This document shows positions 19,407 to 64,000 of a stretch of DNA of 64,000 nt, one piece after another. Both the position numbers and the translations under genes were made by a program. The DNA is from Eledone cirrhosa (lineage: Eukaryota), in contig OZ024740.1 in assembly GCA_964016885.1 (NCBI GenBank), forward strand, positions 94,178,001 to 94,242,000, in the 5' to 3' direction. The notes beneath the pieces are model-generated. The model worked only from the letters and a program-made list of their open reading frames with translations. It was not told the DNA's origin and did no database searches. How positions within the stretch are numbered: the first letter of the stretch is position 1; every line of letters begins with the position of its first letter.

Positions 19407-20165
19407 TTTGCAGAGAGCACAGCTGACTTGCAAATCATTGTGAACAATATCAATGTCGAAGCAGGAAGCTTAGGTCTCAATATCAGTGCCAAGAAGACCA
19501 AAAGCATCTTATCTGTGACACACTCACCACTAACCAGTGATTTCATTGAACAGGGGAGGTGGAGATAGTGGACAACTTCACCTACCTAGGAAGCTCCATT
19601 AACAATGAGGGCACCATGGACAGTGAACTGCAATGTAGAATGGGAAAGGCTTCAGCAGCATTTAATCAACTTGACAAGATCTGGAAGAGCAGGAAGTTCA
19701 CCCTCAAAACAAAGATGAGATTCTACAACAGCAACCTACTGTCCACACTCTCGTACGGATGTGAAACATGGTACCTTAAGACCAGCCAAGAGAAGAAGTT
19801 GGACGCATTCGATTCCAGATGTCTGCGAAAGATCCTGGGGATTAAATGGAGTGAGCATGTAACAAACCAGGAAGTCAGGAACCGCACCAACCAGCAACAG
19901 GTCTCTTCTACTATCTGCAAGCGACGCCTGGGCTGGTTTGGACAGGCTTTGAGAGACTGGCGAACCAAGTACTTAAATGGAGCCCGCAGGGAAGTAGACG
20001 GATAGGGCGACATAAAATGAACTGGCGCCAGACAGATGAGAGGGACCTGCGAGCGACAAACATACAATGGTGGGACGCTGTGCAACCGGCTGCTGACTGA
20101 ACGCGCTGGAACACTATGATTGCCTCATGCGTCGCAAGACGCGGGATCATCTAAGGCTGAGTCTG
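19407..20165 (+). mobile_element. 5'-truncated RTE-like LINE (RT C-terminus), decayed
   Basis: GLNISAKKTK, VDNFTYLGS, SYGCETW, LDAFDSRCLRKILGIKW, RRLGWFG motifs; 9-bp target-site duplication atttaggca at 19398-19406 and 20166-20174. Confidence 0.9.
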
Positions 20166-20559
20166 ATTTAGGCACAAGGCCATATAATAACCACTAATAA
20201 TATTATCTATCATTATATACTGTGCATATCTTAAAATATATTAATGAAAAGAAAGAGTGAATGCATTAGCCATGACAATATTACTTTTGTGCAATTATCG
20301 GTGCCTAATTCTACCTGGCTATAACTTACTTTGAAATTACGCAAAGGAGTAAACATTAAGAAAGCAATAAAATAAACAAATATCATACAATAAAGAGTAT
20401 TAAATGATTTATATTGTAATGGTTGATACAATATATGATATGAAGCGATTAACATGTCTGTCTTTAAATATAACTCGCAGAGGTACCCGGCGTTGCGCGG
20501 TATAACTCTCAGTGGAGTAGTCGTTCAAATGAACCGAAAAAATTCCGTTAAACACGACT

Positions 20560-21070
20560 ATAGAAGTAACAATTTATAGGTTTTGCCCTAAAGATGCCTT
20601 TTGAACGTTCACTTTGAAATATCTCTACGGTCGTGCTGCCAGCAAAGACGAAGCCGATGGTAACAATTTAAATTTGGTGGCCCTAAAGAGAGCCTTGGAT
20701 TGTTAAAACTTAAACGACTAATCGGCGGTGCTGCCGGCAAAGACGAATCCAGCGATAACAATTTATATTTGGTGGCCCTGAAGAGGACCTTTTAACGTTC
20801 ACTTTGAAATATCTCAGCGGTGGTGCTGCCAGCAAAGATGAATCTGATAGTAACAATTGAAACTTGGTGGCCCTGAAGAGGGCTTTGGATCGTTCACTCT
20901 TAAAAGTCCTAGTGGCTGAATTGTCACTAAATACGACTCCGATTAGAGGCGGTGGCCCTTAAGAAGTCCTTCACACCACTTTGGTGTGTCGTACTTGCTT
21001 AGCTTGTTATTTGAGATTTTAACCTAGAAAAGCATGTAACACTCGGTGGCCACAAAAAACGGTCTTGGCA
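20560..21070 (-). repeat. ~95-bp tandem array, each unit with a histone-3'-type stem-loop
   Basis: Minus-strand 16-mers GGCTCT-CTTT-AGGGCC (20679-20694), GGTCCT-CTTC-AGGGCC (20774-20789), AGCCCT-CTTC-AGGGCC (20869-20884), GGACTT-CTTA-AGGGCC (20954-20969), each followed by ACC; decayed copies at ~20584 and ~21048. Confidence 0.8.
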
Positions 21071-21286
21071 AGATCACGCTGGAATGTCGAAAAAAGGTGT
21101 AAATAAGATGTAGGGAAAAGTAGATTAATTAGGTTAAAACTACGGAACTTCGATAGCAAAGCGTAATAGCAACATTAATAACGTATAGCAAAAGCAACCA
21201 CAGAGGCGTATGTGGTATTGTCAAAATGACAACAATAGCACACAGATACAGCAAATGTAACCACTTATACAAAAAAAAAACATCGA

Positions 21287-21845
21287 TTACTTGTTGGCAG
21301 ACAAAACTTTCTTATATACTATGTTTTGGGTTTTCTCGCGAGTTGCAAAAGCAAATAGGTTATGTCGGCTCTCCACTCATGAGCAGCCAACATATTGTTC
21401 ACCATGCGAGAAGCACGGTTCTTCTAAATTAAGCCCTACGACCGTCATCGCCTCACCCTGTGATTTGTTAATCGACATGGCGAAACTGAGCCGGAGAGAG
21501 AATTGCAGTCTTCTGAATGTGAAAGGAATGTCTTTACCGGATGGAATGAGAGGTATCCTTGGTTTTAAGACAGTATCCCCCTAAACCACATCCTGTAAGT
21601 ATTGTTACCTCAATAACATGAGGCACCGCCTTTTGGACGATCAGACGCGTGCCGTTGGAAAACCTTCGGGTTTCCAATTTCCTGAGGAGCATTTCAGCGG
21701 CACATTTCTTAAGTCGCACTAAGTGTAGTGGCAATCCGGGAGGGTCTACATAATTAAGAAATGATGTGGGGTAAATAACAACTTCGTCCGGATCAGCCAT
21801 AGAGTCAAGGGACTTATAGAGGTGCAGGTTTCCAAGCAAGCACAT
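21287..21845 (-). pseudogene. Helitron PIF1-like helicase C-terminus, frameshifted
   Basis: YPTSFLNYVDPPGLPLH..SNGTRLIV, then GLNLEEPCFSHGEQYVGCS..TQNIVYKKVL; stop at 21287-21289. Confidence 0.9.
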
Positions 21846-22328
21846 CGTGGTCGGAGGAGGGGTCGTAGTTAAAGGCCTTCAACAAACATCATTAATTGCA
21901 AGTCTTAAAAATTGCCCATCTTAGAAATGCCACGTAATAATGATCGCCGCTGTTCACTTTTCAGAAGTCCCCCACGTTGTTGGTCTATGGTTTGAGTATT
22001 TCGTGCAGCAGCAGTGTCAGCGGCGTCCCTGCTTGGTCGAACGGCGCGTCGTCCTTCATCCTCTCGCGCGCGAGCAGCGGCTATTGCTGTGGCGTCCCTG
22101 CTTCGTCGAACGGCACGTCGTCCTTCATCATCTCGTGTACGAGCAGCAGCAGTCGCGGCATCATCTTTGTTCCGTCAAAGTACACGCCGAGAGTCATCCT
22201 CATCCGCTCTCGCAGCTGCCGTGAGAGCCTGATCGCAGTCGTATTTACTTCGTCGGTGAGACGCCTTCGCTTAGACCTACTTGCATCATTAGATAATCGA
22301 CCAATGGAAGTTCTTTTCTTGGGGGCAT
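21846..22328 (-). pseudogene. Helitron RepHel N-terminus with charged repeats, joined by deletion to the helicase end
   Basis: ATG at 22328: MPPRKRTSIGRLSNDASRSKRRR..; ~22-aa repeats (AAARAREDEGRRAVRxSRDA); AFNYDP motif before the deletion junction. Confidence 0.75.
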
Positions 22329-23399
22329 TGTTTTTAGAAAATTAAGCAGGGCGAACAATAAATAGTGGGAAAATAACGTTTAAGTAAGAAAATCTAAACA
22401 CGGATATATATTGTGAAAAGATGTGATAAATATATGTGAACTGAGAATGTGGGTATATTTTGCAAGATTTTGTGTACTAGTAATGTTTCAGGTTTTAAGA
22501 TAGGATCAACGCAGCGTACGGACGACCTGTTATAAAGGAAATTAAATAGTGTGGCAACAGTGGTAGGTATATAAATGCCAGTATGTTTGTTCAGTTCGTA
22601 CATAGCAATAAGGAACTACTAACATTGAAAGGATACAGGCAAAAATGGCCGAAAAATCTCAGCATTATAAACTGGAACATTATGACCATAAATACATTAA
22701 CTAAACCTCCTTTAAGGAGACAAATGTTGAAGAAGCATGCGTTTCCGAAACATGGGGTAGCTTAAGAGACTACGCATGTAAAAAAAACCTGCCACTTGTC
22801 AAAAGCCAAAAAAGAAGTGTGATCCTAGGCCGGACTTCACCGATATAAATAGGAGTGATTTAGCTCAATTAACAACACTCGAGTTGTCTGATTGCTTAGA
22901 TAATACAAGTGTGATGAAATCTACTGAACACAGCGCACTGATGTGTGGTTGGACAGAGGTCGCCATTTCGCACTTAATTGAGGTGCAATTAAACTGGGGA
23001 GACAACCGGATGCAACAACTAATCAATCATTCGCACAGTTTAGGCATGAGCGTGAAATGGGACAATCCACATACAGTAGGCGTTAAAATTTACACCTGGC
23101 TTAAATGGTGCTTTCTTGGTTAGGAGTGTGAAATGACGCCAAAGTTCAAGGAAAAAAAATTAACTCCCCATTCCGCACCTAATTGTGTATGCAATTACAC
23201 GGGGGAAACAACCGGGTGCAAAATTAAATTCAACCCTCCTAAAGTTAACAAAACAAACTAAAGTTAAATCAGGGGGATTTACAAATTTCGCTTCTCCATT
23301 TGTAGGAGATGAGTAACCGATGCGTCAACTTTCGTTTAATTTGACTTTTATTTTCAGAAGTTGAAATGCATTGCTGCTACCTTTATATGAACTTTAAAA

Positions 23400-24330
23400 G
23401 TGGTCCAAAGGGCCTCACTGCCTCACCCCAGGGGGTTCCCTTGCAAAATTCAAGTGACAACAAATGTGGGGTGATTTATCTTATGGCAGGCAATAACCAC
23501 TTCCTTTAGTTTTTGTAAGAATCAAGTATAAACTCCCGAGGTTAAAGTGCTTTTTTATTGTGGCAGTTTGAAATTTTATAGGTTAATGGATTGGGCTCAT
23601 TGTTCCCGGGGCGTCCTCTTACTGAAGTGAAATGAAAGTAAATGTGCCTCACTGCATCTTCATATGTATTACATGAATAACAACTAAGTCGAAATTCGTT
23701 TTATTGGACTAACAATTATCGAAGTTATGGCGCTTTGCTGCATTACAGTAGCCAAACTCAATAAATGACCCGCTGGGGCTTACTGCCCCCTGGTGTCCCC
23801 TTGCTTGTTCCGGGTATAGACAGTGTCTTCAACATCATCTTTAGGCAATAAGCAACCAATGTGTCCGGTAAAGTTTAAATCGAACGTAAACTTCAAAGTT
23901 ATCAGGCACTAATACAGTGTTAATGTGAACTTCAATAGATAAGTCGAAATATATTACTGCCCCCGTGTCCCCCTGATAACTTCAAGTAAAAGTTCGTGTG
24001 TTCACCTTCCCTTGTAAGCCATGGGTAACCAATACGTCTCGCTTCGTGAAAACCAAACACCAACTCAAGCAGTGTTGTTGCACTGATGATATGAACTTCA
24101 ACATTCATCAAGTCGGTTTACTTCCAATGAAGGGGTCCCCTGTCTGAATTTCTGCGCAAATACATGCCTGTAAATGTAATTGTAGGCCATAAGCTAACGA
24201 CAGATTAATTTTGGTCAAGAGGGGAGGTAAACTGCAGGAATTATGGGGCCTTTATGCAGTAGTACTGCTGACTCCAAACGATAGACTTAAGGAGGTCTTC
24301 TGCCCCTGGGGGACCCCACACTCGATCTAC
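23400..24330. repeat. diverged ~175-180-bp tandem array in the Helitron A 5' region
   Basis: Recurrent ctgcccc..gg(g/t)gtcccc motif near 23420, 23605, 23785, 23960, 24130 and 24300. Confidence 0.6.
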
Positions 24331-25374
24331 GGAGAAATAAAATAACCTACAGTGTTGTAAAATGTAGAAATGCGTGCGGTTACACAAACAGACAGACAGG
24401 CATCTTCTGTTATATATATATAGATTAGCTTACGCAAAAAACACGCCTCTAATTTTAATATATAGCTTCATAAATTCACATATTACCTTCATTAACTTTG
24501 TGATATTTGTCTATGTAGATATATTGGAATATACGAATATTACATGGTGTTTTGAAGGTGTTCATTTACAATATCTTCTTGTGTGCGTTGGGTGATGAAA
24601 GAAAAAAACAACACGCAATTCCGTCTGAAAAATAGTGTAATGTAATTGTTTCTACTTTTGGCACAAGGCCAATATAATGAGGTGATAACATTCATTTGTA
24701 TGATATGAAAGTATAACACTTTAGCAATAAGCATATTGAACGTACAATAAGACAAATATGTAGCATAGACATAGACCAATGAATTATTGTATTTCTTATT
24801 ACGACCCTTCGTCTTATAGATTCAGTATATGAGACGAATCCGATGTATGCACACCAATTAATATAACCATGATTAACGATGAAATTTAATTAGTTTCAGA
24901 CATAGTGAAACTCAATTCACAGTAAACTATTGTAAAGTTGAATATAGTAAAGCGTATTAAATGTACTAACTCATATCCCGTTCGTGTATAGACAATGAAA
25001 TGTTATATTATAGTAGCATTTTAGGAGACGTAATAGAATACATATGTGATATTGTGCTCATATAAGATAAGACATACAAGGAGCTCATAAATAGGTTATT
25101 TTCCCAAAGTCGAAATATATAGCTTATGCTTGTTCAAATTGATCACACACACATGCACACTCAAACTTGTATATATGTATATATATATATATATATATAT
25201 AACGAAGGAAGTGTGGTAAGGAAGCATATGGACCAGAGTACTCACTATTTAAGGTAGTAGAGTGGGTAATAGGATAATGTTGAAGACCCCGACGGCTTCT
25301 TCTGCTATTTCTCATCCAGAAATAGCCGTCGAAATTGCTTGAACTCTGCCGTCGTGGTCTTGTACAATTTCCCA

Positions 25375-28115: not shown

Positions 28116-28146
28116 CTAGCTGGGCTACTAGGTGATACCCGGGTAT
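28116..28146 (-). other. additional Helitron-type 3' terminus
   Basis: Minus strand tacccgggtatcacctagtagcccagCTAG|T: decayed hairpin plus CTAG followed by T. Confidence 0.6.
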
Positions 28147-28993
28147 TTTATGAAAGTTACACATTACAAAATATTTGACCATTCAAATATGATTGCTGAA
28201 TTTTAACCGAAGCAGGAATTATAGCAGAATATTTATTGCCGTTTTGTCAAAGTAAATCATCTACATAAAAAATATTAGTAGTTTCCAGTGGTGATATTTT
28301 GAATACTGCTCCCTATTACAGTCAGCATATATAATGCTTTACTCATAGATGAATCATTAGGTATGTTGTCAGGGTATGATGAAAGAAATACATTTAGATA
28401 TTTTTTTATTTATCTTTTCCTTTCTTTTTTTTTTTCGCTCAATCTGAACCTCTGAAATTCAAACAACATGTAAAAACTATTTTAAAAACCATAAATAAAA
28501 TAATAAAATAAATTTAGCAATGGTTTATGATTATATGAAGCATTTACTTACTCATTTTTGTAATTCGGGGAAAGTGTATTTAAAGTTGTACACTGTAGTT
28601 TTCACAAATCTTTGCCTCTATGGCAGTAGGATCTTGTTTGAGTGAGATTGGTTTCTATTTCTATTAGCTATACGAACAGTTATAGTGGCTCACATGACAT
28701 ACATAGATACATACACACACATGTATGTGTGTAGACAGTTGTTTGTGATTTGAAATGGATTTTGCTAATATTTCTAGTAGATTCAGTTATCACATAGAAC
28801 CATTCATTTTTGGTTCATACATATATACATACCTGAGAAATTAAGGTGGGCTTTGAAGGAAATGTGGCTGTTATTTCTACCCAACAAATCCTCACTTATA
28901 CTACTTTATATAGCAGAGGTATCCGGGAATGCCTGCATATTCTTCCAAAGTAACAGCATGCAGTAAATTTGCGGCTTCAGAATTCCTTGCAAA

Positions 28994-31900
28994 CTACATG
29001 ACTAAGGAATTGGGATATGTCTGTATTGTCATTGAATGAGGAATTACGACATTACTCATTCCAAAGCCTCTGGATAAGCAACATTGTGGTACCACAATGA
29101 AGAAACAATCAGGGTTACCGACCCTTGTTGTGCCAACATAGAGTTGACCATGCGAAAAGACAGGATCTGCCAGATTCAACCCAGTGACTTTCAATGATTG
29201 TCCTTGAGATTTATTAATGATCATGGCAAAACTGAGCCTGATCGGAAATTGAAATCTGTGAAATTCAAATGGCAAATCAGTTGGCTTCAGAGGTATTCTG
29301 AGAATGAAACAATTGTCACCAGAAAATTTTCCTCACATGATTGCAACTTCTAGAACATTGGACATCATATTTTTGATGATTAGTCTTGTGCCATTACAAA
29401 GTTTTGGAGGATCCAGATTGCGAAGTAGCATAACCGATGCTCCAGGCTTCAGTAGCAGGTTGTGTGGAGGCAATCCCACTTGTTCAAGACTGTTCAAAAC
29501 TTCAGTTGGATAGTTTACAACCAGATCATCAGAAGTGATTGTGTCAACTGATTTGTAGCTTATATTATCTCCCGGTAACATCTCTAGCCGCAGTTGATTT
29601 CTTTCACAGCAACATTTTTAGGTGCTAATATTGCTCCTTCACAGAGCCATTTCGGATCACATTGCCAGGTCTGAATCTTTGGAAACACTCTGGCAATCAG
29701 TTCTTGTTCTGTGTCAAGGATATGGGCAAATGACAACCGAATATGGTCATTGGAGTCCTTTTCAAGAAGTCCATTTCCCAATTTAGGTAGTTTTATGGCA
29801 AACTCACTGACACCTTCGTAACCAGTTAAGTGCACTCGCATGTTGGCTGTAAGGCTCAGCAGCTGAAAGTTGAGCCAGAGATAGGTTGTTTTCAGACAGG
29901 CATTAGCCTGCTAAGCTCGAGTCCCTCGAATAATTACAGGCATAGTTTTGTCTGAAATCACCAGCAAGAACTATTGTCACTCCTCCCATTATGCAACCAT
30001 TTTCTCTCAGATCCCTTATCGTCCGATCCAAAGCTTCGATTGCTCCTTTATGGTTTATAGTAACTTCATCCCAAATTATGATCTTGCATGTTTTCAGAAG
30101 CTTGCCCTTGGGTGAGTTCTTCTTGATGTTGCAAAAAGATTGCTCATGCCGTGTGAGATCTATGGGCAGCTTAAACATGTAATGTTCAGTTCTTCCTCTA
30201 TCCAGAAGTGCTGCTGGAATGACACTTGAGGCCACAGCAAGGGCAATATGTTGCTTTTGGGGAACCTTTGCAAGCAGGAGGTTTATGAGGAATGTCTTGC
30301 CTGTGCCAGCAGGAGCATCGATGACGAAAAGTCCTCCCCTCTCATTTCGAATGTTTTCAATGATGTTGCGGTAGGCGTATTTCTGGTCATCCACCAATCG
30401 AGGTTCATTTTCACCCACAAACTTACGCAAGGCTGGAATATCGTAGTTTATCTCCTGAAAAATGTATTGTGCTACCTCTATTTCTTCATCTAGATCTGGC
30501 ATCCCGCAGTTAGCTAATGTGCTATGCATTGCCTTAACTCGATGGGACAGGTCACAGAGAGCTTGATTGTAAATCCTGGGGGTATATTCCATATACATAT
30601 TGCCATAAATATTGTCTTCGGGCTAGGTCTAGATTGTCGTCCGACATATTGTTTTTATACTCCTGCCGGAGTAGATGAGCTTCATCAATTCCACATGCTG
30701 GGAGCATATGGCAAATAGTTGTCTTACTTGGCTGGCTACTTGAGTGATTGCTGCTTCTTTTAGACACTTCTTCCAGTGTCCATTGTCATGCAGGAGCCCA
30801 TGCTGTTTACATGCTTATTGGTGTGTTGGGCACTCCCGTCGTCTGAATCATATAATATCCTCAAATTACGTTGGTCCTCGAACAGTATCCAGAAGTAGCC
30901 GTAAATAAAAACATTCTCTGTTGTTGGGCTGGACATTGTAAACACGCCCAATAGCATCACTTGACTTGACTTCATGACTTTCCACTAAATTACTCTGCTT
31001 TCTTCGATTCCAGGTCTTGCAATTGCTCCAGGTGTAGTATGTTGGGACTTCAGCATATAGGAGGGATCGAGCAAATTCATCATTCTGGCACAGTTTAAAG
31101 AAAGCAGTTAGTGTAGTGTCATATGTTGCTTGTGCCAACTCATAAGCAGTGATCACACTGAAGTACACTCTCTGTCCATTTCCCAGATGGACTGCGAGAT
31201 TCACCACTGTTGGGTGGCGTTGGTGGATATCAAATCCAAAGTTTCGCCAGATCGCCTCATTGCTGGAGATGTATCGTCCTGTTTGATACCATTTGACATC
31301 ATCCAACTCACCATCCTTGAGTTCTTTGTCAGTAATAAAGGTAGCCATGTCACTGCCTTGTTGATATATGTTGTGACATATAGGATTGCCTTGATGGAGC
31401 CTCAATACTCAACATTGATATGAGCTTTTAAAAGATTACACAACAATTTGTTGTGTGGGACGACCCACTGATTGTTTATGGTCAGCTCCTCTCCTAGAAC
31501 TGTTAGGCTTGCAGTATCGCCATTATTGTTAGCCGAGTTTCCTGAATAAGAGCTCTAGGATAATGTTTGCTGCATTATTGATCTTTCATGCAGGGAGAGG
31601 CTGGATTGATGACTCCACATGGACCATGAATGAGTTTGGACTTGATGGTTTCAAAGAGCTCTGGATCACCACCTTTATCAGACAACTCTGCTGAAATGTT
31701 CTTATCAACATAATCTGGTCTTATCTTCTCCTTATACCAGATTAGTGTGTGAGAGAGAGAGGAAGACCTCTCTTCTGCCACTCAATAGTGGTCATCCAAG
31801 CACTAAGTTCACCAAATATTCTTCCTTCTTTTAGGAGCCAGATGACTTTTTTCTTTTGCATTTCATGGAAATCTCGAGCAATGAGGTCATGTCGATCCTT

Positions 31901-34900
31901 TGGTTTTTGATTTTGAAATAATTCATTTGATATTTCTTTTCAATTTGAATTGCTTTTAAATGTAATGAAGAGATCTGGCCGACCACATTTTCTGACATAG
32001 GCCATTGCATCTTGTGTTCGTGGTCCTCCCGTGAAGCTTGATGGTAGTATGACTGGCTGGCCCATATTTCTTGGGTCAACATCAGAATTGATGGTATCTC
32101 TAATGTGGATGTAGTCATCTGCCTTCAACTTAGTTTGATTCCTTCGCAGAAAACCCAATCTTTCTGTTTCAATTTTGGCATACATGTCCACCATGAACTG
32201 GCTGGTTTCTTTTTTGAATCGCAGAACTTAGTTGAAGTGGTCACGTACCATGAAATGATAAGCATACAATTCTTTGCAGGTGATTTATCGGCCAGTTCCT
32301 TGTCCCGTTCCGGGCCTGATATGCCGTAGCTTAAAATGATATCCATCTTGAACCTTCCAAAAGATATGCGGATATTGGAGTGAATTATAGGCTCTATGCT
32401 TTTCACAAATTCGCTCCAAATGTCCACTTTGTTTTTGCAAAACAATGTCACGTCGTTCATGCTGTTCATCAACCATTATGATTGCAACTTCATCAGTGAG
32501 AGGTGCATTGAATCTGCGTTCATGTTCTGAATCTGGGCTTATTTCTGCCCTAATGATGATTTTACGATCTCTGGTGTTGTTCATATTCTCCAGTACATAT
32601 TTGAACTAGACATGAACAATGCGCAAGCTCAAAAGAGACACAGAATGTTATAATAAACCTTCAAAAGTGTAGGACTAGAGTTGTTACTAAAAAATATTGT
32701 AATCATTATCTATCGTACATTCTGTGGCATCCTTTATAAAGATATCACAATAAATACATCTATGTTTTATGTAATAACTGCTATAAATAATTACGTATTA
32801 TTATTATCATATACTCATACTAACAAAATAATTCTGTTGAAAATTAATATGATGATTATATGAACGATCAAATCTATAATGATAATGTTATAAATATACT
32901 AATATTAAAATAATTTAGTTATATATTGTTACATTTTCATCGAACTATAACATTAACAATCGTATTGTATCACCAACTTTTTATCACTGCAAACTTTCAT
33001 ATTGGAATTACCTTAAGCCATTTATCATTACTTCGCTTACGTACTTTGACAGATGTAGATATTCTGCTGTATCTTATATCTAATATCATGATCTCATGGT
33101 AATTTGCATGCAGTGAAATAGTGCAAAAAGAAAGGCATGGTTGGTTTAAGCTAATGTCAAATATCTCATATTAGATGTTTAGTAATGATTAATACGAAAT
33201 GCACTTAAACCAAACTCTATATTATAAATTCACTTAATTAATTATCGTGTCGTCTTGAGTTCCTTATGCGTCTCTGATATATAAAAAGATGCCACATATT
33301 TTATAAAAAAGAGACTATGAGTATATGATAATAATATTACGTAATTATTTATAGCTGTTATTACATTAAACATAGATGTATTTATTGTGATATATATATT
33401 ATAAAGGATGCCACAGATGGTACGATAGATAATGATTACAATATTTTTGAGTAACAACTCTAGTCCCACACTTTTGAAGGTTTATTGTAACATTCTGTGG
33501 CTTTTTTTAGCTTGCGCATGTTTCATATCTGGTTTAATATTTTTTTAAGGCAACGCTTGTAATAACTATAGTTAAACATGATATATATTAATAATTACTT
33601 ATCGTTGTAATGTAATTAGATTATATAATTGTTATTATAAATGATCTTATAAATATTTGTGTAAGATGTATAAAAATATTTTCAGACTTTTAATATAAAC
33701 AACAACAAAAAACAATCAATATTAAATCAATATATTATACATAATAGAAACATTAAAAAAATAAACAATATAAACATAAAATATTTACATACAATAGCAA
33801 TTATCAGTCTATATAAATTTTCTTTATTCACTGAGCAAATTAATGAGATATATTACATTTGTTTTACAAAATAGTTAATATCAATTTAAAAAAATCGTAT
33901 GAAGATATAACAAAAATAGATGAACTAGGAAGACAAACAAAATAAAAGGTGGATGCTTTTGAGCAAAACTTACTCTGATTGGTTGAAAATTAGCCAATGG
34001 CATGTAATCACCACGGCCACCGCAAAACCTTGATAAACACATTGACGATCTACACATATATGTTAGAACACTAAAAGTGACTAAAACATTATGTTGTTAG
34101 TCGCTTCGTTTTTAACAGATACACTGACATACATGTGATGTTGGTGAATCATTTCTTGTAACTTTATGACTATGTAGAACTGCAATCCACAATGGACATT
34201 GGTACATCTTTGTTGCGCCTGAGTTTTATTTCCACCCTTGAAGTAAACCTGCACAGATGTCTGAGGCTCATGTAAAAGTAGCAGAAGGCCACCCATTAAG
34301 TGGTAACACTGTCCCTGAATGTTATAAGTTGTACAGAATCTAAAGTCAATCAGACCCAAAAGATGTCATTTGAAAGGCAGAATTATATGTTATGATGTAT
34401 TTATTGAAGTGTCGGGCCTCTGGTGTATGCTGAAGGAGTATATCAGGAGATTATTGTATTGTTTTAAGGCTCACTTTGCCTTTTGAGCAGCATAGACTTG
34501 GTGTTTCTGCTACCTACTTCTTGGCACCACAATACTGGCAGCATTTGTTCATTTTCCCAATGTTGATTTGTGGATTACTGCTGTAGTCCTTTTGGGGATC
34601 ATAAGAAAAAAGCACCCACCAGCCAGGTCATTTTACTTGTGGCTTGTTCTCCTGCTCGGACAGTAAAAACGATGTGCTTGATTAACATTGGTCTGATTTG
34701 CTGATCTTCCTTAATTTGTTGTTCTCTTATAGCAGCAGTCTTTTGTTCCCTTTCATCCAAATGGTGTGCTCGTGCTAAAGCTGTTTGGGCTCTGTTAGCA
34801 GCTAGACGGGCATGACGAAGATCTTCACTTTCTTCAGATCGCTGTGTTTTCTTTCTCTTAGCCTCTGAAGATGACCTTCCATATAATGATCTGGAACATT

Positions 34901-36512: not shown

Positions 36513-39500
36513 CTGGCTGACGTACCCAGCTTCGCCCGGGTAAACAGATGATAAGAGAAGACAGGTAATAGAGAAAATGAGTGTATTCGATGTTTGTCTG
36601 GTTACAGTATGAGGCGAGTCCGTGGTGTCTGTGTGATACCAAAAACAGTAAAAAGAATCTTCCAGATATACCAAATTCTCCGTTGTACCGTTTGTGCATA
36701 GTATATGAACAATTCTAGGTGCTCCCACCTAGAATAGTGACCTCTAGGAGATGGTTTATCTACTGCCTGACTGTAAAACGTATATCATTGCATAGACGTG
36801 CTTGTTCCACGTTTCTCAGAAGGATGATGGAAGTTCCAATCTGTTATATTATATGTAGATACAGATAGAGATAATTAATATGAAAGATGTCCGTCAATGT
36901 AAAAAAGGTCCCTATTTACTTGAAATGGTTTATACAAATGCCAAATTAATATGGATATGGATAACATGCTTATCTATAAGTGGTCAGCTATAATAATAAC
37001 ACAACAAATTATATGACACAAAAATGTATTCAGTAATTTCCAGGCTCTTAGCCACTGTGTAATAGACAGTCAATATTGCCCAGAGTTCAACTCGGGGAGG
37101 TGGCCTGGTTTGAACTCCAAATGGCGGATCCTTCTACTTTGAAAATAGAATCGTTTCTCAATATTACTCTAGCCCTGGCCGGCCATAGGCACCAAACTTT
37201 TGCCAGACTCAGCATATGATGAGGTTTTATTACCACTGCAATCAGAAGCGATACACTTGAAGGCACTTTCTACCAATACTTGTCGGTTTTTATTGCTCAT
37301 CGATAATAAATGACATTGAACATAAATGATAACTCTGTCAAAGCTCACAATATTGATGAAAGGACACCAAAGTTCGAATCATTTAAGTAGCTTATTGATA
37401 GTATAAAATATATGCATACATCAGCTCAAAGCTTCATTATGGACAATATTCAGGGTTGTTCCTCTGTTAGTGGTATCGATTGCAAATGTTATACCATCAG
37501 GATCGCACACTCGAGATGCAGCAACATACAGTTGCCCATGGGTGATTGCTGGATCATTCAAATAGACACCGCCTCGCTTGAAAGTCTGTCTCTGTGCCTT
37601 GTTGACAGTCATGGAGAAGGCCAAATTGACGATAAACTGTCTCCTTTGCCAAATGAATGGCAGCAGATCTTCACTTGGCCTCAGCATGATCCTCGGAATG
37701 AGAACCGATTCCTCTTTGCCTGGGAGTTTAGCTTCTAAAACTCTTCCGTTAATCAATCTCTCAACAATCAATCTAGTACCATTGCAAAGACCCATTTTAT
37801 GATTGATATTTCTAAGCAATATAATCGGCATACCCTTTTTCAACCTCAAAATATGTGGGTGAAATCCGAGTATTTGAAGTGAATTCAGATACTCAGTCGG
37901 TACATCCATATTGTTCTGCTGATAAGGCTCCATTGCATCCGCACTGACGGTCAACCCTTCCTCTCCAGGAAACATTCCAGCTACTTGCGAATTTATTTCA
38001 TTGACCGTTGCATTCGTATGAGTTAGAATAACGCGTTCCGATATCCAGCAGATATTCTGCCAAAAAGCATTCAAATTAGGGAACACCCAGTCAATGAATG
38101 CTTGGCGGTCCAGTGGCATGACCAAATGGTCTGGGATTCTTACAGTCTGATTATCACCAACGTCTGGAAATTCCTCGTTTCCCAACAGCAGCAACCATCG
38201 GCCGCATATCTCAGCCCCTTCGTTTTGCCCGAACATACGAAGTCGCATATTATCGTGTAATCGCAAAGCTCTGAAAAGGCGCCACAACGGTGATTTTTTC
38301 AGACATGCATCGACAATTTGCGCTCTTTGAGCATTCCTAACAATTGGTAGAACCTGTCTGAAATCGCCACCAAGAACGATAGTCTTACCACCGAATGGCA
38401 GGTCACTACCGCAGATATCTGTCAAAGTTCTGTCCAATGCCTCCAGCAAATATTTGTGTGCCATTGGACCCTCGTCCCAAATAATCGGAGACGTATTGCG
38501 TATAAGGCCCGTGAGTTCACTTTGTCCTGTAATGTTACAGACACTCAACTCATCCGGAGCCAATGGAGCCTTGAATCATGAGTGGAAGGTCCTTCCACCA
38601 CTCAGCACAGTGGCAGCTATCCCTTGGTGGCCATAGGGAGAGCAATCGTCCTCTAAGCTCTGACTGCCGATAACATAGTGTTGAAACAGAATGTCTTTCC
38701 GGTGCCTCCTGGAGCATCTATGAAAACACAAAGTTGCTCATTAGTGGAAATTGAGTGGAGAACGCCATCGACCCATTCTCTCTGAGATTGGGTCAACATT
38801 GGCATACGTTCATCCACAATACGTTGCTGTTCCAGTGGATGAAACTGGAAGAGTTCCCTCCGATCGAGTAGGCACCGTGTAAGCTGCAATCTCATGTCTA
38901 AGACACGTTGCCGCATTTCTTTATCAGGAATTGGCAAATTGAAATCTATTAAACATTTGAAATGAACTTCAAGCATTTGCTCATCATCGACCTGAAGGTG
39001 ATGCCTAAAATCATCAGCCATAATTTCCAATGGCGTTCAAATAACTCTCTTGGATCGGCAGGATTGCAGAATCCTATGATCGTGACAAAACACTGCCTTA
39101 CTTGAGCTGGCATCTGTCTTGTTCCTGCAGCTTCCATGGCGTTATTCCATTCAGCGTCATCTTGAAGGAGTCCCATATGCTGACACACAGCCTGTTATGT
39201 ATCATATTCCACGCCATTGATTGTTTTCAAATCAGCGAAGATCTGTTTACCTCTTATGCTTGAACCAGTCAGTCAATTCGGTCTTAGGAGGTGGTGCGTT
39301 AGCAATTCATTCGACATCTCTTCTAGTGTCCTGAAAACAGACCATTTGCCTATGCTCTAAGTGAACCGTCAGTTTCTGAACGCTGGGTTTGCGTTCATTG
39401 AGATGAAAATCGAACAATCTCCAGCAAGCTTCGCTAGATCCAACGAGCGAACGTCTTGGGAGTTGCCAACTGCATCTCCTTGGTTCGCTTACTCATTCCT

Positions 39501-40440
39501 GACAATGATCATTGCCCGATCATGACCATTGTAAATATATTTGAATAGATATTTGCAAGCTTTCACTGAGCTACAAATTTCCACATTAATATGACAACGA
39601 TATTTCATAATCAAATATGGATTCTATGGCAAACCCATTGATTTGTAACGTGTCGACCGTTTACATTTTCGAGCAAACCGCCATCGGCAGGCGACCATCT
39701 TCTGTATGAGGGATGAGCATCCCCATCGTTCCAGGAAGTGTACGAGACAAAAGATTTCGGAAAGTGCTTACTGCATTGGCCATTTTTCATGCAAGGCGCT
39801 TTCCAATTTGCTACACCGCATTGGTTGTGCACCATTGACTTTTCCACCAAGTTGCTTAGTGCCTCATTCAGTACACACAATGCTGTCGACATCCTCAGCA
39901 CATCTCAATTTGCAATCTCTATGTAAAATGATCAGCAAATGTGCCTGTGGCAATCCTCTTATTTGGAATTCAATTATGTATGTAAAAGCAACCATACCTC
40001 CAAAGATTCCCTCTGTTTCAACATCATCCATTATCTTTTTCAGATATCCTTTGAACATTCTTGCCACAATATCAGGACGGTCCTTTGGCTGTTGTCCTGA
40101 CAAACGTACATCCTTAATATCAGTCCATTCAGGATTGCATGTAACCATTATAAACAAATCTGACTTTCCAAACTTTCTGACAATAGCCATTGCATTCTGA
40201 TAGCGAATGTTCATATACCACGGGCCGCCGATGGACGACGATTGCAAAATCATGCGTTGACCAATTTGCTTATAATTGGCATCATCGGCTGTTATCGCAT
40301 CCTGTATATTATTATACAATTCAGCTCTGATATGTTGATGATGTGTAGCTATATAATTTAGCCTTTGATATTCGATCTTTGCGAATGCCATACAACAGTA
40401 TTCCTGGAACAATCTGCTGGCTTGAAATATATATTGGCAC
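36513..40440 (-). mobile_element. decayed Helitron (Helitron C), 5' boundary not resolved
   Basis: 3' hairpin cccgggcgaagctggg + tacgtcagCCAG|T ending 36513; RepHel remnants 37421-40440. Confidence 0.85.
37421..40440 (-). pseudogene. Helitron Rep-PIF1 helicase, fragmented (helicase portion open for 380 aa)
   Basis: FQEYCCMAFAKIE; GKSDLFIMVTCNPEW; DRPDIVARMF; IEFQIRGLPQAH; VEICSSVKACKYLFKYIY; DAPGGTGKTF; IIWDE; LGGDFRQVLP; LCNGTRL; HGQLYVAASRV. Confidence 0.95.
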
Positions 40441-41176
40441 AGATATTATTGTAATAATGTTGCACAATGTATACCAATATTGAATTTCTTGATATATATC
40501 AACGCTATATTCTCCTAACCAAAGTATAATTTCCTTTTATAGTTTTTGACCTAAAGTAAAATCTAAAAATATTTAAACCATTGAAAATAAATCGTAAAAA
40601 ATTCTGCATGAACCTGTATATTCCTGAATGTGTTTCACATTTAAGGAATCACGCAGCGTAGATATTAACTAGAGAACACGGTGTGAACTGCAGTGTTTGG
40701 GGAAATATCACGAGTCCATTAAATTGATATCGTATCCTACCAAGACAGAACATGTCAAATTTATTTAACTGATAACTTCGATTCATTTTCCTATTTAATT
40801 AGAATACCTTGCAGAGGATTCTTCACAGGTAAGATGACAATCTGCATGATGCATCACATAGCCTTTCAGCAATATTCATAGGAAATAATTTTAAGTAACA
40901 TGATCTAGTATATATTCGAGAAAAACCAAGATAGTTTAACATGAAAAGATGACTAAGGGAGGAAACATGTTAAAAAAAAAAGCCGTTTATGTATCACTGA
41001 TTAAAACAATATATCTATTAATTATTCGAACCGAAAAAATATAATGATCTAGAAATGATTGTATTTTATGAATGCAAAATAGGCGCATCGATAGATGTCG
41101 GTACATTAATCATTTTAAAACTGTCTTATACAAAACCTCAGACGGCGGCAAGAAATAGGAGTAACAGAAGTAGAGG

Positions 41177-62660: not shown

Positions 62661-62815
62661 ATGATGGCTGCCCCCTCGTTATTGAGTATGGCCATTGCAC
62701 AAGAACAAAAATAAATAAAAAATAAAATAAAATAAAAATAAAATAAAATAACAAAATAAAATAATAATAATAATAACAATAAGAAATAAATAAAATAAAA
62801 AAAAATAAAAAAAAG

Positions 62816-62859
<44 letters not shown>

Positions 62860-62931
62860 ATACATACATATATACATACACACATACATACACATACACT
62901 CACACATATATACACACATACATTAATAACA

Positions 62932-62976
<45 letters not shown>

Positions 62977-63060
62977 GCAATAATAATAATAACGACAACA
63001 ACAATAATAATATACATATTCATATATATACTCACACACACGCACGCACATAAGCATATC

Positions 63061-63099
<39 letters not shown>

Positions 63100-63102
63100 A
63101 CA

Positions 63103-63161
<59 letters not shown>

Positions 63162-64000
63162 TAGCAACTTACAGTGCTGCGATCGAATGTGGCTTTTTAG
63201 CCCAGCCAATGATCTAAAATGTCTTGCACAGAGTCGGCAACCAAAACATTCACTCGGAATAGACGGCTGTGGTTGGAGTTCGTGTACTTGTGCATGTCGG
63301 TTGAGCCCTCCTGCTGATTTACATTCTCTACCACATGTTTGGCAAGCATGATGAGTAGCATCTCCAACAGCAGCCTGGTAGTCAACCACTGGTCTTACTT
63401 TATGACTGCGAAGATGACTTTCGAGTCCAGCTTTGCTTAGGCAGAGTCTCGCACAGACGCTGCGTGTCAGAACCATAGGAGGACCCTCGCCGTCTGGAAG
63501 TGCAACAGCAATGCCCTTCATCACGTCCCGCTTTACTTTCTCGTGTGCGATTCGAGATGCCTCAAAGGCAATTTTTCCCTCATATACAATCTTTCTCCAT
63601 TTATTACGATCAGCAGCAATATTTTCCCATGTATCAGCAGAGATGTTAGCGTCTTTCAGAGAGGCTTTCAAGGAATCCTTATACCTCTTCTTTGGTTTAT
63701 GTGGCGGTCGTATTCCTTTAAACAACTCTCCATAGAAGAGTTGTTTTGGTATTCTAGAATCCTTCATCCTGGCAAGGTGACCACTCCAACGGAGTCGTTG
63801 CTTAAGCACAAGAGTTTCTATACTGTCACACATAGAGCTTTCCAAAATCTCGACACCACTGATGTGGTCCCTCCAGTGAACGCCATGGATCCGTCTGAGA
63901 CACATCTGATGGAAACGCTCCAATTGCTAAAGGTGGCGTCGATATGTGACCCAGGTCTCGCAGGCATGAAGAAGACAAGAGAGTACACATGCCCTGTACA
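62661..64000 (-). mobile_element. RTE-clade LINE 3' end with three C2H2 zinc fingers; 3' UTR expanded by microsatellites
   Basis: ACETW, RFHQMCLRRI, RLRWSGHLARM, IPKQLFYGEL, PKKRYKDSLK, DRNKWR; fingers at ~63175-63470; tail ..ggccatactc..gcagccatcat at 62661-62700; continues beyond the window. Confidence 0.88.

Follow-up and report, generated by a model that had tools for sequence, protein, structure and literature searches.

What is a histone-type stem-loop doing, in several copies, inside a transposon? The question is raised by a Helitron in a 64,000-nucleotide stretch of Eledone cirrhosa DNA (the window, by which we mean that whole stretch). An initial annotation had described hairpins of the kind found at the ends of histone mRNAs downstream of the helicase gene of this element, and had proposed both a link to the histone mRNA pathway and a horizontal origin. 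As far as the cited sections of PMC10388802 go, replication-dependent histone mRNAs stand alone among metazoan mRNAs in being described with a terminal stem-loop of this type. Our search of the open literature, with repeat databases, subscription journals and supplements outside its scope, turned up no account of Helitrons with histone stem-loops; in the accessible text of PMC13282606, from the octopus and cephalopod Helitron literature, the words 'histone', 'stem-loop' and 'hairpin' are absent, as is 'helitron' from that of PMC13525598.

The array lies in a dead Helitron copy

The array sits at the 3' end of an element of a family that we call F5 (Table 1). Blastn against L340, a copy of about 7.3 kb, aligned window positions 24429-22096 and 21844-20470 and left L340 4945-8361 without a window counterpart; about 3.4 kb of RepHel is gone. 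The putative 5' end, TCTATATATA at window position 24424, is also the start of L337 and L340, which in addition share sequence upstream of it. The broken 5' stretch of the RepHel frame is joined to the helicase end in copy L004. Pfam detected PIF1 and Pif1_2B domains in copy L010 and Pif1_2B in the window copy, and Rep-domain motifs could be seen by eye in frames of L013, L337 and L340.

Table 1. Features of the F5 Helitron copy and its hairpin array (window coordinates).
Feature	Position	Strand	Remarks
Helitron copy, internally deleted, non-coding	20474..24424	-	blastn against L340; end comparison
RepHel frame 5' start, broken	21960..22329 (approximate limits)	-	basic N-terminus and Ala/Arg-rich repeats; from sequence
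Pif1-type helicase C-terminal end, frameshifted	21287..21878	-	Pfam Pif1_2B_dom, E 4.7e-6; tblastn
Hairpin U1, damaged in window copy	21048..21064	-	F5 family form fully paired 6-4-6, U-first loop, two G-U pairs
Hairpin U2	20954..20969	-	5/6 pairs, C-first loop, then ACC; pattern match 20952-20969; family majority
Module U3: GTGAACG box, hairpin 20884-20869, ACC, AATTGTT box	20851..20897	-	Rfam 17.8 bits
Module U4: upstream box, fully paired hairpin 20789-20774, ACC, AATTGTT box	20756..20802	-	25.2 bits, E 1.6e-4
Module U5: decayed upstream box, fully paired hairpin 20694-20679, ACC, AATTGTT box	20661..20707	-	21.0 bits
Module U6	20567..20612	-	hairpin damaged in window copy (near 20598), perfect in family majority
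Helitron 3' terminal hairpin and end	20474..20502	-	CTAG changed to CGAG in window copy, then T; 30-copy comparison

Using the 3' 811 nt of the window copy as query, we searched the 3.0-Gb genome and scored 40 of 208 candidates; the full-length matches among those 40 were 85-92% identical to the query. A subterminal hairpin followed by CTAG ends 26 of the 30 copies that we fetched, with T next in 25 and unrelated flanks beyond. These ends and the Pif1 domains agree with the annotation of the element as a Helitron, and it belongs to the canonical type. Like canonical animal Helitrons (Helitron1 type, such as Helraiser; PMC4778049, sections cited), it combines a RepHel with a Pif1 helicase, a putative 5' TC, a subterminal hairpin, a 3' CTAG and insertion before T with deleted derivatives and internal tandem repeats.

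Measured against their column majority, F5 copies diverge by 1.9-6.7%, and none diverges more than the window copy. The latter is a dead Helitron, and its hairpins are decaying neutrally. Even its stop codon is its own: an 11-nt loss removed the TAG of the F5 family, and the TAA at 21289-21287 is found in the window copy only. The array had been placed some 220 nt past the helicase stop at 21287, a distance that therefore needs revision; in L010 the true stop precedes the hairpins by 274, 368, 453, 548, 643 and 737 nt.

Several other features of F5 copies deserve mention. A GC-rich palindrome of about 40 nt with a CTAG end directly abuts the putative 5' TC in L337 (4740-4780) and L340 (2410-2450, minus-strand count), which suggests head-to-tail insertion next to another small Helitron end; such a palindrome also lies downstream in L336. 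A truncated copy is part of a 4.4-kb tandem repeat with four or more units (L359-L362, at about 163.63 Mb on one contig). F5 family sequence is covered in contigs from two runs of one sample, which are uninformative about RNA.

The hairpins resemble those of host histone genes

A histone-type pattern, allowing at most one mismatch, matched the window at 20952-20969, 20867-20884, 20772-20789 and 20677-20694, and found nothing in 100 shuffles of the window. All six units lie on the minus (coding) strand. The hairpins in the window are histone-type, sense-stranded and far beyond chance; the initial annotation had described four of them as histone-type on the coding strand. The column majority of 30 F5 copies restores six 16-nt hairpins, five fully paired and one with 5/6 pairs, at spacings of 94, 85, 95, 95 and 95 nt, matching the six units 85-95 bp apart that had been annotated. 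Every hairpin has AA before it and either ACC or AAC after it, with an A directly 3' of the stem in 6/6 units. A minimal SLBP site consists of the hairpin with two A residues on its 5' side and one on its 3' side (PMC10388802, sections cited), and these letters are present in all six units. At the stem top U1 has a U-G pair; the remaining histone stem features (6-4-6 geometry, GG...CC base, U-A top) are present in the array. The first loop base is C in U2-U6, as annotated, and an ordinary U in U1.

Rfam gave a more cautious picture. At the gathering threshold, a scan of the window returned no match; the Histone3 model (RF00032), whose gathering score is 34 and whose scoring takes in 25 nt of 3' flank as well, gave 25.2, 21.0 and 17.8 bits to three units. 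Elsewhere we obtained 33.2, 28.6 and 28.3 bits in other families and 27.7 in an F5 copy, all below 34. Sub-threshold scores had been named beforehand as evidence against a histone stem-loop, and at face value the window hairpins, at 25.2 bits at best, fall on that side.

The comparison with host genes was closer. We collected 35 distinct histone 3' ends (H1, H2A, H2B, H3 and H4), in all of which the first loop base is U and in 29 of which the stem is GGCCCT/AGGGCC. The U-loop hairpins of three other Helitron families, F0, F1 and F15, equal host histone hairpins letter for letter, and those of F5 U3 and U6 differ from them only by U to C. The likeness to a histone mRNA 3' end (RF00032, SLBP, HDE, U7 snRNP) extends to the 6-bp stem and 4-nt loop, the A-rich 5' flank, the ACC/AAC tail, the sense position relative to an upstream intron-poor open reading frame and a conserved box downstream. 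Unlike histone genes, where the hairpin follows the stop codon by 20-43 nt, the Helitrons carry theirs 196-508 nt away (first clear hairpin), in some cases as tandem copies, with a C-first loop in three types, an additional GTGAACG box, a weak and closer downstream box, and a location in a transposon. In sequence and structure the shared element is like a histone stem-loop, while lacking part of what defines a histone processing signal.

As for the machinery, the host genome encodes an SLBP RNA-binding domain. Our U7 snRNA search of the genome peaked at 29.7 bits, below the cut-off, and the 5' end of that candidate shows no clear complementarity to the downstream element of the host. In host genes that element has a WWGT core mostly at +18/19, and its purine-rich character is not strong. 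The ATTGTT region of the Helitrons scores -2.9 to 5.3 bits on the host downstream-element profile (host median about 9), lies mostly 3-4 nt nearer the stem and resembles host H2A/H1 variants. The initial annotation had seen no purine-rich U7 element; a conserved AATTGTT box does follow U3-U6, and the host element is itself not strongly purine-rich. The GTGAACG box was not seen before host core-histone hairpins, and none of 33 core-histone loci qualified as a source gene with both boxes; the flanks of one H1 gene loosely resemble them by eye.

A foldback (MITE-like) repeat of about 620 nt, present in L032-L060 (for example L034 and L044:1139-1763) with many copies on one contig, is the source of most of the top Rfam Histone3 matches in this genome. 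In each of its two arms lies the 3' end of the host H4 gene, including a perfect stem-loop of the histone type and the region downstream of it; identity to H4 locus L036 is about 80% over 230-280 nt, and L034 retains the last H4 codons.

One module recurs in otherwise unalignable Helitrons

To place F5 among its relatives, we took 80 loci from the lower-identity rows (52-68% helicase identity) among the 150 matches listed, added seven earlier loci and the three elements of the window, and clustered the coding DNA of these 90 into 15 clusters. Five clusters carry the hairpin (at most two mismatches) in sense orientation between stop codon and element end: F0 (13/18 copies), F1 (2/16), F5 (6/6), F6 (1/4) and F10 (1/1). 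The other ten, which include the two other RepHel elements of the window, have none. Across the 90 helicase-anchored rows, matches were in sense orientation and inside the element, save one antisense match in a copy whose hairpin is near-palindromic; random orientation, which would have spoken against the original idea, is not what we find.

Exact searches extended this set. A pattern of GTGAACG with the hairpin 3-8 nt behind it gave 256 matches in the genome and none in the reversed control, and the exact C-loop hairpin gave 290 (control, 0); 29 of the first 30 of these 290 lie in Helitrons, 17 in F5 and 12 in a non-autonomous family. The latter consists of elements of 0.9-1.6 kb that start with TC, end with CTAG, have no stop-free frame longer than 87 aa and contain the module. 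The exact GTGAACG pattern led to this family and to F15, an autonomous family with the module 196 nt past the stop. Six types of 3' region (F5, F0, F1/F6, F10, F15 and the non-autonomous family) thus share a module of about 50 nt, composed of GTGAACG, hairpin, ACC and AATTGTT, always in sense orientation. In an all-against-all blastn, nothing beyond this module (30-60 nt) and the terminal hairpin was shared among the 3' regions of F5, F0, F1, F10, F15 and the non-autonomous family; between F1 and F6, which have different helicases, a 3' block of 484 nt aligned at 83%.

Among six representatives, mean pairwise identity was 0.95 for the upstream box, 0.93 for the hairpin, 0.82 for ACC/AAC and 0.95 for the downstream box, against 0.44 and 0.34 for the inner spacers and 0.28 for the outer flanks; two of the six types were found through a pattern requiring upstream box and hairpin, which inflates the values for those two parts. 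The downstream box, 9-11 nt past the stem in 6/6 representatives, was part of no discovery pattern, and the boxes are set asymmetrically around the hairpin (6-7 versus 9-11 nt). Conserved boxes between variable spacers imply constraint in lineages that were once active. The proposal that the hairpin would outlast its surroundings therefore stands between families, where this conservation points to selection.

Over 16 aligned modules, 95/96 stem cells are paired, most departures being G-U on the sense strand, and loop position 3 is U in 16/16. Loop position 1 is U in F0, F1, F15 and F5 U1, and C in F5 U2-U6, F10 and most non-autonomous copies. In the covariation check that had been proposed, one pair changed on both sides, which 26/500 shuffles also reach, so stem covariation is not significant in these 16 modules and suggestive only. 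Two degenerate sister units (L288:993-1054 and L122:917-978) have a perfect 6-bp stem with A-U for G-C, a compensated change, and non-histone loops. Folding z-scores of the 62-nt modules are modest (-2.8 to 0.04), and an outer AACG/UGUU helix, which shows no covariation, belongs to the minimum-energy fold in some of the 12 modules only. We also looked at poly(A) signals. AATAAA and ATTAAA are missing from the 3' region of F5 copy L010 and from six module-less representatives, and one of them is present in each of the other module-bearing types; the contrast is uninformative because elements without the module lack the signal too and other elements with it have one.

Within F5, hairpins in dead copies decay like their spacers

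Conservation within F5 differs from that between families. The hairpin is better conserved than the spacer in U1 and partly in U2, whereas in the young units U3-U5 it is identical at 13-15/16 positions, no better than the spacer (86-95%). The annotated persistence of hairpins amid diverged spacers accordingly holds for the first unit, partly for the second and strongly between families, and fails for U3-U5. Among dead F5 copies, 4.1% of hairpin cells are substituted (117/2858) compared with 3.2% of spacer cells (369/11508), and the two are equal after base-composition matching; we found no post-insertion selection on F5 hairpins. A hairpin no better conserved than its spacer in intact family members had been named as evidence against the proposal; we observe this among dead copies, where neutral decay is expected.

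Distribution of the module

A module covariance model run on 84 sources of the genome found the module-bearing families only, missing a single degenerate F6 copy. Among 80 metagenome Helitron loci, of which 46 hold at least 600 nt past the query end, none had the module (best E 1.5); viral contigs gave neither a helicase relative nor a module match, and 596 Gb of prokaryote genomes gave two matches to a looser pattern, which we take as chance. The 3' region of the module families thus departs from that of other canonical Helitrons, represented by these 80 relatives and ten of the 15 clusters. Since it is absent from 10/15 clusters, 14/16 F1 copies and 80/80 metagenome loci, the module is dispensable.

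We built a quick helicase tree of 75 rows with module labels assigned per family (L333 was left out for want of a helicase match). Module-bearing families are interspersed with module-less ones in a group of 34 rows (SH-aLRT 89), and the label changes five times, with at least two changes forced by strong branches. A single origin followed by losses and spread by 3'-end exchange both fit this tree.

Other elements in the window

Two more RepHel elements lie on the minus strand of the window. A second Helitron, of cluster F7 (about 36513-40445), has Rep and Pif1 remnants, its own 3' end at 36513, a helicase about 41% identical to that of F5 and no stem-loop module. F7 copies occur on four contigs (L064-L090); on one of these, near-identical copies at roughly 100-kb spacing suggest large segmental or tandem amplification. 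The third, a remnant of cluster F14 (about 28911-31940), is likewise without the module and is followed by a further Helitron-like hairpin-CTAG end at 28116. The 3' fragment of a LINE reverse transcriptase (Pfam DUF6451, 19550-20124) adjoins the end of the F5 copy, and a C2H2 zinc-finger open frame at 62682-63926 on the minus strand is probably a host-gene exon.

Discussion

Taken together, the original reading was right about a Helitron with histone-type, sense-stranded hairpins beyond chance, and the conservation between families points to selection; its suggestion of a horizontal origin is not supported. What might the module do? We think there is about an even chance that it is an SLBP-binding RNA element, captured from a host histone gene and kept by selection in active lineages. 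Helitrons capture and transduce host DNA (PMC4778049, sections cited), so a host histone 3' end was likely captured once; the module, its probable descendant, lies in sense orientation after the RepHel stop and before the element ends. If SLBP binding on the RepHel message helps the element, purifying selection in active master lineages would retain the module. SLBP-dependent stability or translation may then yield more RepHel in S phase or in oocytes, and this rise would coincide with the time at which the single-stranded Helitron insert is made double-stranded, a conversion that PMC4778049 (sections cited) models in S phase. The ATTGTT box may also direct U7 cleavage, if inefficiently. In F5 the module has been amplified in tandem to six units. 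In short, we infer that the module was captured from the 3' end of a histone gene, that purifying selection kept it in active master lineages and that SLBP binds it.

The fuller version is more tentative, and we think it somewhat doubtful: RepHel transcripts would bind SLBP through the captured stem-loops and be stabilised, translated or cleaved as histone mRNAs are, tying transposase supply to S phase and the oocyte, and pairing of GTGAACG with ATTGTT may gate U7 access. Full histone-style processing of the message seems less likely, given the distance from the stop codon (196-508 nt), the tandem copies and a downstream box that is weak and mostly 3-4 nt closer to the stem. Against the SLBP reading stand this same distance, where host histone genes have 20-43 nt; the dispensability of the module; a C at the first loop position in F5, F10 and most of the non-autonomous family, seen in 0/35 host hairpins; the degenerate neighbour units, whose paired stems with non-histone loops suit a generic hairpin role; and GTGAACG, as conserved as the hairpin yet missing before host core-histone hairpins. 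That this box pairs with the ATTGTT box, as in some of the folds, or binds another factor is speculation.

GTGAACG is also the main support for an explanation that we consider unlikely, namely that the module was exapted from a histone 3' end to act on DNA, as a top-strand single-stranded hairpin or protein site in rolling-circle transposition (second-strand priming, pausing or host-factor recruitment). The Helitron terminator is itself a top-strand hairpin (PMC4778049, sections cited), and a DNA role would suit both the non-autonomous family, which keeps the module with no long frame, and the degenerate units, whose stems stay paired around other loops. The letters that are kept are nonetheless histone-specific (a U-rich 4-nt loop, a U-A closing pair and an ACC tail), the box spacing is asymmetric, unlike a palindromic double-stranded site, and 13/16 F1 copies multiplied with a short, module-less 3' region. 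Retention in gene-less elements could also reflect a sponge, in which the module ends or forms a putative small non-coding 3'-region RNA that titrates SLBP and leaves the RepHel mRNA alone. Six sites in F5 and the large distance from the stop favour such a role; in most families, however, good hairpins number no more than one or two, the benefit to the element is not evident, and we find this role improbable.

The module could instead be travelling as a neutral passenger, in which case slippage would have multiplied a captured histone 3' end in tandem and 3'-end shuffling would have carried it between families. Helitrons do capture host DNA (PMC4778049, sections cited) and often contain tandem arrays (PMC7492417, sections cited), and F1 and F6 have a 3' block in common across different helicases. 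Its copies decay neutrally, the families that bear it do not form one branch of the quick tree, and capture of an H4 3' end is seen in the foldback repeat of this genome, which is unrelated. Yet neither neutral decay nor block exchange would leave three boxes conserved, and the spacers between them variable, in six settings whose flanks are at background, and no further histone sequence lies alongside the module; we rate this explanation as quite unlikely. Short tandem arrays inside rolling-circle elements are shared with mollusc Helitrons and Helentrons (PMC7492417 and PMC8268682, sections cited); F5 differs from these in that its monomer holds a host RNA-processing signal conserved between families.

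The C-first loop had been taken as a hint of horizontal origin. C. elegans histone hairpins, which bind CDL-1, do have C at loop position 1 (CTTT or CTTA; PMC1924863, sections cited), and nematode Helitron proteins are among the homologues, at 53-58%. A nematode-like donor seems very improbable to us all the same. In the quick tree the F5 helicase sides with families of the same genome and with Octopus bimaculoides, whose proteins nest among Eledone cirrhosa Helitron helicases, and not with the Ancylostoma row. Moreover, U- and C-loop versions of one module coexist between families and within both F5 and the non-autonomous family, which makes a local origin of the C-loop simpler. The host comparison that had been proposed leads the same way: C-first loops are foreign to the host hairpins, but sister families carry the host-identical U-loop on the shared GGCCCT/AGGGCC stem, and C is one transition away. 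The C-loop thus likely arose locally by that transition, and the resemblance to C. elegans is likely convergence. Vertebrate SLBP reportedly tolerates C at this position.

If RepHel messages do bind SLBP, a pathway regarded as reserved for histones would have clients of another kind, encoded by transposons, and a selfish element would be using host RNA machinery to sense the state of the cell cycle or germ line. If the module acts on DNA instead, Helitrons would have a conserved internal cis-element that is so far undescribed. Modules that differ naturally in loop base (U or C), in number (single or tandem) and in presence or deletion make testing cheap, and a module kept under selection would offer a direct handle on the poorly known timing of Helitron expression.
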